This document shows positions 40,890 to 43,598 of a DNA stretch of 61,662 nucleotides, in pieces; position 1 is the stretch's first letter, and each line of letters starts with the position of its first letter. The notes beneath the pieces are model-generated. The model had not been told where the DNA came from and did no database searches. It saw nothing but the letters and a program-made list of their open reading frames with translations. Where the stretch lies: assembly GCA_010093995.1 (NCBI GenBank), contig ML992502.1:506760-568421 (forward strand), read 5' to 3'. Both the position numbers and the translations under genes were made by a program. Source of the DNA: Elsinoe ampelina. Its lineage: Eukaryota.

Positions 40890-41453
<564 letters not shown>

Positions 41454-41744
41454 GTTGGATAGTTGTGTGGTGACAGTGACCTTGGATGAGCTGGCGCGAA
41501 ATGAAGCCGAAGTGCGATGTTGGATTTGAAGGGCAAAATTCCTGGTGCGGTTTAGCCGGATTTTCGCCGGCGCATGGGCCCGCATCTTGGCATGAAAAAC
41601 CTCCTCCTCTCTTCGTCGACCTTTACAACAACATTCTTCCATTCCATTCTCTGCTTGTTAAGTGTCTGGTCCGTTCAACCTCGATATTGACATGTAGCTT
41701 CGATACAGTTGCTTATACGCCGTACATCGCAAAGAGTAGCCACC

Positions 41745-43598
41745 ATGGGAGAAGCTGTGGTCGGCCTCATCGGCATGGGCGATATGGGCAAGATGTATGC
41801 CCGGCGCCTAAGTGATGCAGGGTGGAGGTGAGACAGCCCTCTTTGTCAACAGGAACTGTCTCCATACTATTGGTGAGTCTACCTTCTCCGTTCAGCTTCA
41901 CCGCCCCCAGCACCTGATGACTTGAGTGCATTTGGCTCGAGTATGGTCTGCTCGGTTCTATCACCGTTTCGGTGGTATAACCGGGCAGACTGTCACTGAT
42001 GTAACTTCTCAGCTACCTTACTTTCTTTCGTCTGACAGCTTCCTTCGAGCCACATGTTCATCCGCATACTTCGGAATGAACCTGTGCTAACAAGCTCTAC
42101 AGATTTCAACCGCGTCAATCTTGCTCCATTGCTGATGATTGATTGTAGAATACATGCCTGTGACATGCCAAACAAGTACGATAGCCTCGTAGAAGAGTTC
42201 AAGGGTAGGGTACGAGTCACCTCCCTGTACCTAGTTCTTCCATAGCACAGACCTGGCTGAGTAGCTCTCCAGGAGAATGTACAAATCATGAAAAATGGCC
42301 ACCTCGTCTCCCGCAGCAGTGACTACATCATCTACTCCGTCGAAGCCGAGAACATCGACCGCGTCGTCGCCCTCTACGGCCCATGTCAGCCCCTCTGTCC
42401 TCTCCTCATCGAGCCCCCACTAACCTCCCCCAGCAACCAAACTCTCCGCCATCGTCGGCGGCCAAACCTCCTGCAAAGCCCCCGAAATCTCCGCCTTCGA
42501 ACGACACCTCCCCCCGGACACCTCCATCATCAGCATCCACTCGCTGCACGGGCCCGGCGTCTCCCCCGTAAACCAACCCCTCGTCTTCATCCCGCACCGC
42601 TCCACCCCCCAATCCCTCTCCCTCGTGCAATCCATCTTCTCCTCTTTCCACAGCAAAACCGTCACTTTATCCGCCGAGCAACACGACCGCATCACAGCCG
42701 ACACCCAAGCCGTGACCCACGCCGCCTTCCTCTCCATGGGCGCCGCATGGGCCGCGAACAACCAGTTCCCGTGGGAAATCGCGCGCTACGTCGGCGGCAT
42801 CGAGAACGTCAAGATCAACATCACCTTGCGGATATACAGCAACAAGTGGCATGTGTATGCCGGGTTGGCGATACTCAATCCGTCGGCCAAGAGGCAGATT
42901 AGGCAGTACGCCGAGAGCGTCACGGAGTTGTTCAAGTTGATGTTGGCGGGGGATCGGGAGGGGTTGAGGGGACGGATATGGGAGGCGGGGAAGGCGGTGT
43001 TTGGGACGGTTGGGGAGGGGAAGAAGGAGGGTGGGTTGTTGTTGGAGGATGAGTTGTTGGATCGGTTTAGTCTTGGGACGAAGCCGGAGACGAAGGTGAG
43101 GAATAATCATTTGAGTTTGTTGGCCATGGTGGATTGTTGGTGGAAGTTGGGGATTGTGCCGTATGATCATATGATTTGTTCGACGCCGGTGAGTGGATTG
43201 AGGTGGTATGGAGGGATCTTGCTGATGAGGGATAGCTGTTTCGATTGTGGTTGGGGATCACGGAGTACTTGTTTCGGGACAAGGCGTTGTTGGAGGAGGT
43301 GGTGGAGACCGCGATCGAGGATAACACGTTCAGGGCTGATGATTTGGAGTTTACATTCGCCGCTAGGGTAAGTGGAGATACTTCGTCAAGTCGTAGAGGT
43401 ATATGTACAGGATCCGTGACTGACCTCTGCTAGGATTGGAGCGATAGAGTCAGCTTTGGGAATATGGACGGGTATAGAGAGAAGTTTGAGAGCATCCAGA
43501 GCTACTTTGCGCCTCGATTCCCAGAGGCCACAAAGCTAGGCAACCAGATGATCAATACCATCGAAGAAAACCTCAAAGCAAGAGGGAAGGCCTCGTAA
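41745..43598 (+). CDS. TYR1: Prephenate dehydrogenase; exons 41745-41827, 42149-42209, 42273-42384, 42434-43188, 43236-43367, 43434-43598
   Basis: GLIGMGDMGKMYA Rossmann motif, IVGGQTSCKAPE, HSLHGP, HDRITADTQAVTHAAF and NKWHVYAGLA; all five introns are phase-consistent. Confidence 0.95.
41910..42040 (+). ncRNA. snR13: Box C/D snoRNA, snR13-like, intronic in TYR1
   Basis: Box C TGATGA (41915), guide GCATTTGGCT with atypical D' TCGA, G:U-containing hairpin 41940-41997, second antisense GCTACCTTA (42012) and box D CTGA (42032). Both antisense tracts complement LSU rRNA UAAGGUAGCCAAAUGC. The layout matches yeast snR13 as I recall it; not database-checked. Confidence 0.88.

Follow-up and report, generated by a model that had tools for sequence, protein, structure and literature searches.

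A box C/D snoRNA intron nested within intron 1 of TYR1 in Elsinoe ampelina and related fungi

We analysed a 61,662-nt window of the Elsinoe ampelina genome (assembly GCA_010093995.1, contig ML992502.1, positions 506,760 to 568,421 of the forward strand; all coordinates below are those of the window) that includes TYR1, the gene for prephenate dehydrogenase. The first intron of TYR1 is a true nested intron, real and used, in which a complete inner intron carrying a box C/D small nucleolar RNA (snoRNA) lies within the outer intron of the protein-coding gene. Both junctions were observed in RNA, transcripts from which only the inner intron had been removed were abundant, and the architecture, its geometry and an asymmetry in signal strength are conserved across relatives. 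A first-pass annotation, made from the letters of the sequence, had proposed two full sets of splice signals here. Every one of its positions proved exact, and the lengths of the 321-nt intron, the 230-nt inner unit and the 91-nt residue agreed as well. The parts of the intron are:

41828..42148, + strand: outer intron, 321 nt (joint 41827/42149 with GT..AG ends, in runs X1, X2 and X7)
41873..42102, + strand: inner intron, 230 nt, carrying the snoRNA (joint 41872/42103 with GT..AG ends, in runs X1 and X2)
41828..41872, + strand: 5′ remnant, 45 nt, retained after inner splicing (X2 contig 8)
42103..42148, + strand: 3′ remnant, 46 nt, with the outer branch site and acceptor (X2 contig 8, X1 contig 4)

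The outer set of signals consists of the donor GTGAGA (41828–41833), the branch GCTGAT (42131–42136, with its A at 42135) and the acceptor TAG (42146–42148). The inner set consists of the donor GTGAGT (41873–41878), the branch GCTAAC (42086–42091, A at 42090) and the acceptor CAG (42100–42102), and its excision leaves a residue of 91 nt (45 + 46). As had been claimed, the snoRNA is inside the inner unit, with box D a measured 55 nt from the inner branch A (~55 nt in the annotation). In a reading of the sequence, the retained 5′ remnant gives AG|G TGA, which places a TGA (41829–41831) directly after the completed AGG codon, and the 46-nt 3′ remnant is frameshifting; both agree with the consequences predicted for use of the inner donor and the inner acceptor. 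The 3′ remnant also contains an ATG (42135–42137) in frame with exon 2. Judged from the letters only, translation of half-spliced RNA from this ATG would produce a TYR1 without the N-terminal GxGxxG motif.

Contigs assembled from three public runs (X1, X2 and X7), all representing one organism's RNA, were placed on positions 41600–42500. They derive from RNA, as they carry the GT..AG joints of introns 1, 2 and 3 and no other letter differences. The raw-read run X22 contributed one partial read and was uninformative. Contigs of this kind show presence, not absence: they drop rare forms and are blind to lariats, kinetics, the order of steps and small-RNA ends. The depths were:

X1: outer joint 41827/42149, 5.2; inner joint 41872/42103, 4.3; unspliced intron, 4
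X2: outer joint 41827/42149, 228.6; inner joint 41872/42103, 164.2; unspliced intron, none
X7: outer joint 41827/42149, 8.4; inner joint, none; unspliced intron, 5.3

The first-pass annotation had named these two junctions as the ones to search for in RNA, and was to be given up if the outer junction and a single 321-nt lariat alone were seen and the inner signals were not conserved in orthologues. Neither the junctions nor the conservation went that way: the inner signals are conserved (see below), both junctions were found together in X1 and X2, and the inner joint was present in two of the three informative runs at a depth close to that of the outer joint. RNA spliced at the inner joint only made up ~45% (X1) and ~42% (X2) of the spliced TYR1 forms. 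The depths of the separate branches add up to the depth of exon 1, with 4 + 4.3 + 5.2 against 14.4 in X1 and 164 + 229 against 410 in X2. The half-spliced form is captured unbroken by X2 contig 8 (149 nt), in which 41798–41871 is joined to 42102–42176, so that exon 1, the 45-nt and 46-nt remnants and exon 2 follow one another. The mixed joints 41827/42103 and 41872/42149 were in no contig of the runs. In X2 the contigs of exon 1 and exon 2 are ~400 deep, and the long contig that runs from exon 3 onward has a mean depth of 155 (41648–41827 compared with 42273–42500); this drop may be an averaging artefact of the 3-kb contig, or may reflect extra 5′-proximal RNA.

The RNA enclosed by the inner intron has boxes C, C′ and D, a guide and cross-species conservation in 30 lineages (defined below), all of which are expected of a box C/D snoRNA:

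41910..42040, + strand: box C/D snoRNA, ends approximate (alignment of 30 lineages)

Box C (TGATGA) is at 41915–41920, box C′ (TGATGT) at 41997–42002 and box D (CTGA) at 42032–42035, and the D′ box is degenerate. An invariant guide, GCATTTGGCT, occupies 41928–41937, and a second conserved element, CAGCTACCTTA, occupies 42010–42020. The alignment of the 30 lineages has 40 invariant columns spread over box C, the guide, box C′, the motif GCTACCT and box D, and an internal hairpin covaries, with compensatory changes in 11 of its 18 predicted pairs. A scan of the window with the learned snoRNA geometry returned this snoRNA alone, plus one false match in TYR1 exon 5. The spacing from the inner splice sites is canonical (~42 nt between donor and box C here, 36–55 nt in the nested lineages, and 52–68 nt between box D and the branch A); intronic snoRNAs of Neurospora crassa mostly lie 41–60 nt from the 5′ splice site (PMC2780460, in excerpt). 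Mature snoRNA ends were not visible in the contigs, which cannot show the ends of small RNAs.

The snoRNA is probably the homologue of yeast snR13 and of N. crassa CD1, a likeness drawn from descriptions and not from sequence. CD1 is a 125-nt intronic snoRNA with a D′ guide of 10/0 and is given as the snR13 homologue (PMC2780460, Table 1, in excerpt), and snR13 is among those with the shortest guides and has an extra base-pairing region whose target overlaps that of the guide (PMC3116282, in excerpt). The shared features are thus a length of ~125 nt, an intronic location in N. crassa, a D′ guide of only 10 nt and, besides it, another conserved element. The snoRNA described here has no Rfam match: no family reached the gathering score in the whole window, and nothing relevant appeared at E values up to 10 in 41800–42200 or in 15 related loci. 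Two further pairings or copies of the guide were considered and set aside. Just past box D, 42045–42057 is a near-copy of the guide's target that could pair with 41926–41941 (-19.7 kcal/mol, z -1.75). Pairing of the guide with its own downstream intron as a general property was rejected, as the 30 lineages have a mean z of -0.12 and only 2 of 30 fall below -2. Second copies of the guide at L058:4315, L059:2750 and L062:4806 are TYR1 exon 5 coding sequence (...F-R-I-W-L...), hence a coincidence and not a second snoRNA.

The conservation of the double signals, which the annotation had suggested checking in relatives, was profiled in metagenomic TYR1 loci retrieved with the homologue alignment, using the best 80 of 367 confirmed relatives. 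The 10-nt guide was found upstream of exon 4 in 73 of the 80 loci, that is, in all those with enough upstream DNA; the seven loci without it have just 8–410 nt upstream, and the guide lies 432–633 nt upstream in nested loci. Besides the window itself, 65 loci were parsed, which gave 52 unique introns in all. The 15 loci left out comprise seven with no anchor, four with exon 1 off the contig, three in which box C is cut by the contig end, and L071. The last has an extra short intron that interrupts exon 1 behind ...GKMY and is missing from its close relative L070, which suggests that an intron was recently gained or lost. Intron 1 occurs at the same phase-2 site in 65 of 65 parsed loci and is 309–423 nt long, except in L048 (247 nt) and L073 (485 nt). 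With strict patterns, the inner signals were recovered as follows, with the frequency in composition-preserving shuffles of the 52 orthologous introns given last:

Inner consensus donor: 46 of 52 unique introns; shuffles, 0.038
Inner branch and a YAG that leaves 20 nt or more: 49 of 52 unique introns; shuffles, 0.082
Inner donor and branch/acceptor both: 45 of 52 unique introns; shuffles, 0.0023

Chance therefore places both signals correctly in 0.23% of trials. Outside the snoRNA, the flanks are approximately randomised between lineages, with a median pairwise identity of 0.57 compared with a shuffled mean of 0.54 and a shuffled maximum of 0.62. Lineages were defined as 30 clusters at 70% flank identity; clustering at 60% was dropped, as shuffled pairs reach 62%. 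The double signals were kept in 26 of these 30 diverged lineages under strict rules and in 28 of 30 under relaxed rules, which admit the GTTCGT donor of the L012 group and the GCTCAC branch of L054. The two remaining lineages, L048 and L073, carry single signals.

The geometry of the 28 nested lineages separates the inner intron from its surroundings:

Inner intron: 229–259 nt, median 238.5
Inner donor to box C: 36–55 nt, median 42
Box D to inner branch A: 52–68 nt, median 56
5′ remnant: 41–124 nt, median 51.5
3′ remnant: 26–76 nt, median 47.5
Residue: 77–164 nt, median 104.5

The dimensions of the inner intron stay within narrow limits and those of the remnants vary widely, and a branch motif sits 11–24 nt from the outer acceptor in 27 of the 28 lineages. 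Signal strength is asymmetric. Inner introns have strong-consensus donors in 26 of 28 lineages and CTRAC branches in 25 of 28, compared with 8 of 28 and 12 of 28, respectively, for the outer introns. The ordinary TYR1 introns 2–3 of the same loci (median 55 nt) have 6 of 46 and 12 of 46; the parse of L034 is poor and its two introns are unreliable, which leaves 44 of the 46 sound. We considered whether the outer signals are unusually weak and rejected this, since their values match those of introns 2–3: it is the inner intron that stands out by its strength, and the outer one is of the ordinary kind. In 26 of the 28 lineages a stop comes directly after the split codon, but an immediate stop is automatic with a GTRR donor in phase 2, and is therefore no evidence of selection. 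The annotation had also drawn attention to a pairing of GAGACAG (41830), beside the outer donor, with CTGTCTC (41856). Both motifs exist and pair with each other in the fold of minimum energy, whereas the idea of a conserved hairpin in the 5′ remnant did not hold, as the fold is not unusual in the window (z -1.77) and is not conserved (mean z -0.25 in the 28 lineages, 1 of 28 below -2).

A tree of exon-4 proteins from the 30 lineages, with 28 named or database proteins added, which should be read cautiously as it is based on one exon, indicated how widely the nested form is spread. Nested loci stand beside genera of Pleosporales and Mycosphaerellales, Dothideales (Taxawa) and Arthoniomycetes (Coniocarpon), and also beside a sister group made up of Eurotiomycetes genera, Geoglossum, and the Leotiomycetes/Sordariomycetes clade (L068 with Drepanopeziza). 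L048 (3578–3825) and L073 have the same snoRNA in a simple intron (247 and 485 nt) with a single donor, branch and acceptor. They form one clade (100/99) with Microthyrium, a dothideomycete, inside the nested-bearing group. Because the simple form is confined to one clade within that group, it is probably derived, through a single loss of nesting.

The best explanation, to which we give a probability of roughly 0.6, is ordered inside-out splicing in two steps, the second of which is slow or incomplete. The strong, nearby inner sites would be paired first by the spliceosome, and the inner lariat would be released, debranched and trimmed to the snoRNA. The outer donor and the outer branch site would then be within 91 nt of each other, an ordinary length for a fungal intron, and a second, slower splice would make the TYR1 reading frame. 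As long as this step is slow or incomplete, an RNA that keeps the 91-nt residue between exons 1 and 2, with its stop directly after exon 1, would build up, and in consequence all transcripts would give a snoRNA and only part of them the enzyme mRNA. Fungal splice sites pair across the intron, and two-step excision by intron definition is described in Pezizomycotina (PMC5639578, in excerpt); nested splicing in Cryptococcus neoformans is a further precedent (10.1101/224170, in excerpt). Given pairing across the intron, the inner donor, being strong, would be expected to capture the equally strong branch and acceptor of its own set, leaving an ordinary 91-nt intron for a second step. Inside-out splicing with a slow second step fits the abundance of the half-spliced RNA, the lack of mixed joints in the contigs, and outer signals that are weak for a span of 321 nt compared with the 55-nt median of introns whose signals are similar. 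The step order, the fate of the half-spliced RNA and any regulatory use are inferences, as is the coupling of snoRNA release to TYR1 expression that the first-pass annotation had envisaged.

Several observations weigh against ordered splicing. The final mRNA is the same for one-step and for two-step removal of the 321 nt, the inner joint is missing from X7 despite a depth of 5–12 over the region, and the simple introns of L048 and L073 indicate that nesting is not needed for producing either the snoRNA or the enzyme. A stable dead-end product also fits equally well with half-spliced RNA at 42–45% of spliced forms in RNA that looks mature, with no unspliced intron in X2. Such a dead end is central to a scheme of competing splicing, in which mRNA would arise only by a direct 321-nt outer splice, and use of the inner pair would yield an RNA with the 91-nt residue that undergoes nonsense-mediated decay (NMD) or stays untranslated; both routes would free the snoRNA, and the split between them would set the amount of enzyme mRNA per snoRNA. 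The abundance of the inner-only RNA (164 vs 229 in X2, 4.3 vs 5.2 in X1) favours this scheme and its absence from X7 could reflect regulation, while the stop after the split codon in 26 of 28 lineages loses its force because the phase-2 GTRR donor generates it automatically. An NMD target would not be expected to reach 42% of steady-state RNA. The weak outer signals would moreover have to skip a near-consensus inner donor and a near-consensus inner branch/acceptor over 321 nt, when the ordinary weak introns of this gene are typically far shorter (median 55 nt). Although snoRNA hosts in mammals are reported to use alternative splicing and NMD to uncouple their outputs (PMC11028025, in excerpt), we consider competing splicing unlikely here, if a serious contender.

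Far less can be said for the inner signals being a neutral leftover of a snoRNA-intron unit that was inserted in an older intron, with an inner junction of no consequence. Fungal snoRNA-intron units have been proposed to move between sites (PMC3596301, section 7), and L048 and L073 do without nesting, but the simple form is found in a single clade inside the nested-bearing group and is probably derived. The signals are kept in 26 of 30 lineages even though the flanks are randomised, against 0.2% by chance, they exceed those of the ordinary TYR1 introns in strength, and the inner junction accounts for 42–45% of spliced forms; this reading is largely refuted and very improbable. Lowest in our estimation is the proposal that the snoRNA has its own promoter or is released by endonucleolytic cleavage, the double signals serving just to clear a long structured intron. 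Some fungal snoRNAs are indeed independent units (PMC2780460, in excerpt), and the contigs contain no mature snoRNA ends. On the other side, the distances to the inner donor and branch are canonical in 28 of 28 nested lineages, as for the intronic snoRNAs of N. crassa (PMC2780460, in excerpt), and no promoter evidence was found, and none was sought.

The rest of the gene and its neighbourhood were read from the same window:

41745..41827, + strand: coding part of exon 1 of TYR1 (prephenate dehydrogenase; sequence reading, with RNA contigs that end or join at 41827)
42149..42209, + strand: TYR1 exon 2, 61 nt (joints 42149 and 42209/42273; translation (R)IHACDMPNKY...)
40890..41453, - strand: ribosomal protein S14 gene, RPS14 (open reading frames; name from peptide recognition)

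The name prephenate dehydrogenase is the one given by the source to homologues of the 251-residue exon-4 fragment of TYR1. The start codon of TYR1 is at 41745, and exon 1 stops at 41827 in phase 2, after ...SDAGW+AG. The remaining introns measure 63 and 49 nt, from RNA joints, and 47 and 66 nt, from the sequence read against the protein consensus. The peptide encoded at 40890..41453 on the minus strand is one we take to be RPS14. RPS14 and TYR1 are arranged head-to-head with start codons 291 nt apart, and the divergent pair was found in 46 of the 48 related loci that extend 1200 nt or more upstream, all but L029 and L032. This pairing suggests that the locus is driven together with ribosome-biogenesis genes, which would be a reason to uncouple the enzyme mRNA from snoRNA output. 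G+C content in the whole window is 0.41, with 524 N, and the TYR1 region looks far richer in G+C by eye; the low overall value suggests AT-rich stretches elsewhere in the window.

Taking the neighbourhood and the inside-out order together, we tentatively put forward the possibility that the locus is an ancient attenuator. From a bidirectional promoter region shared with RPS14, a fast inner splice would deliver the snoRNA from each transcript and a slow outer splice would limit the enzyme mRNA, an arrangement selected across several classes of Pezizomycotina. As part of this same tentative proposal, TYR1 would be transcribed at the rate needed for a snoRNA of ribosome biogenesis, with the mRNA fraction set, and possibly regulated, afterwards.

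Fungal introns are short, with recognition across the intron, and little attention has so far gone to how a protein-coding gene can accommodate a snoRNA of ~125 nt under such a rule. The TYR1 locus represents one solution, a strong and self-contained snoRNA intron inside an ordinary weak one, kept in most of the sampled lineages. In the one organism with RNA data, the half-spliced non-coding RNA comes close to the mRNA in abundance. The locus is thus a compact and genetically tractable model for asking whether nested splicing in fungi runs inside-out, for the uncoupling of host mRNA and snoRNA outside mammals, and for how snoRNA-bearing intron units settle in new hosts. For annotation, many ascomycete transcriptomes will contain the inner junction in the guise of a TYR1 "alternative isoform" with a frameshift.

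Among known systems, stwintrons are similar in being nested U2-type introns of Pezizomycotina; they are spliced consecutively, with a detectable intermediate, by intron definition (PMC5639578, in excerpt, PMC9024468 and related papers). In TYR1, the abundant RNA that lacks only the inner intron may be such an intermediate. In a stwintron, however, the inner intron breaks the outer donor, branch or acceptor, and there is no outer intron until the inner one has been excised. Assignment of TYR1 intron 1 to this class was rejected, as its outer donor (41828–33), branch (42131–36) and acceptor (42146–48) are uninterrupted and lie outside 41873–42102; it also differs in carrying a snoRNA in the inner intron and in occurring in several classes. 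In the stwintron literature consulted, the word snoRNA was found in one paper, there merely as an Rfam category. Recursive splicing was likewise rejected, because the inner junction (...ATTG|ATTTC...) makes no GT and the second step would use the original outer donor 45 nt upstream.

The complex snoRNA introns of fungi share stepwise splicing and the proposed movement of units (PMC3596301, sections 7–8, and PMC5033589, in excerpt). According to the same excerpts, such introns either lie side by side, overlap or are recursive, with exons of zero or negative length, or the snoRNA itself holds an intron, and their hosts are non-coding and polycistronic; in TYR1, one snoRNA intron is fully inside an ordinary intron of a protein-coding gene. 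Mammalian hosts that combine alternative splicing with NMD resemble TYR1 in that a stop-bearing isoform still yields the snoRNA and so uncouples the two outputs (PMC11028025, in excerpt). The inner-only TYR1 isoform is of this kind, with AGG TGA after exon 1 and the snoRNA intron removed, although the mammalian cases belong to another kingdom and depend on exon choice, compared with an enclosed intron in TYR1. A published description of a snoRNA intron nested in an intron of a protein-coding gene was not found in a search of mostly open literature; PMC2780460 may already record the host of CD1.

TYR1 intron 1 does fall under nested splicing, the "intron within an intron" reported for 13 cases in Cryptococcus neoformans by spliceosome profiling (10.1101/224170, in excerpt). 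A small inner and a large outer junction in the RNA of one locus define it, and both were found for TYR1 in X1 and X2. As far as the excerpt goes, the C. neoformans cases are without a snoRNA, and in the example given the large intron alone is detectable in polyA RNA-seq (10.1101/224170). In TYR1, by contrast, RNA spliced only at the inner joint is plentiful, and distantly related lineages keep the architecture. The snoRNA intron enclosed in an ordinary intron of TYR1 is a variant of this known nested splicing.

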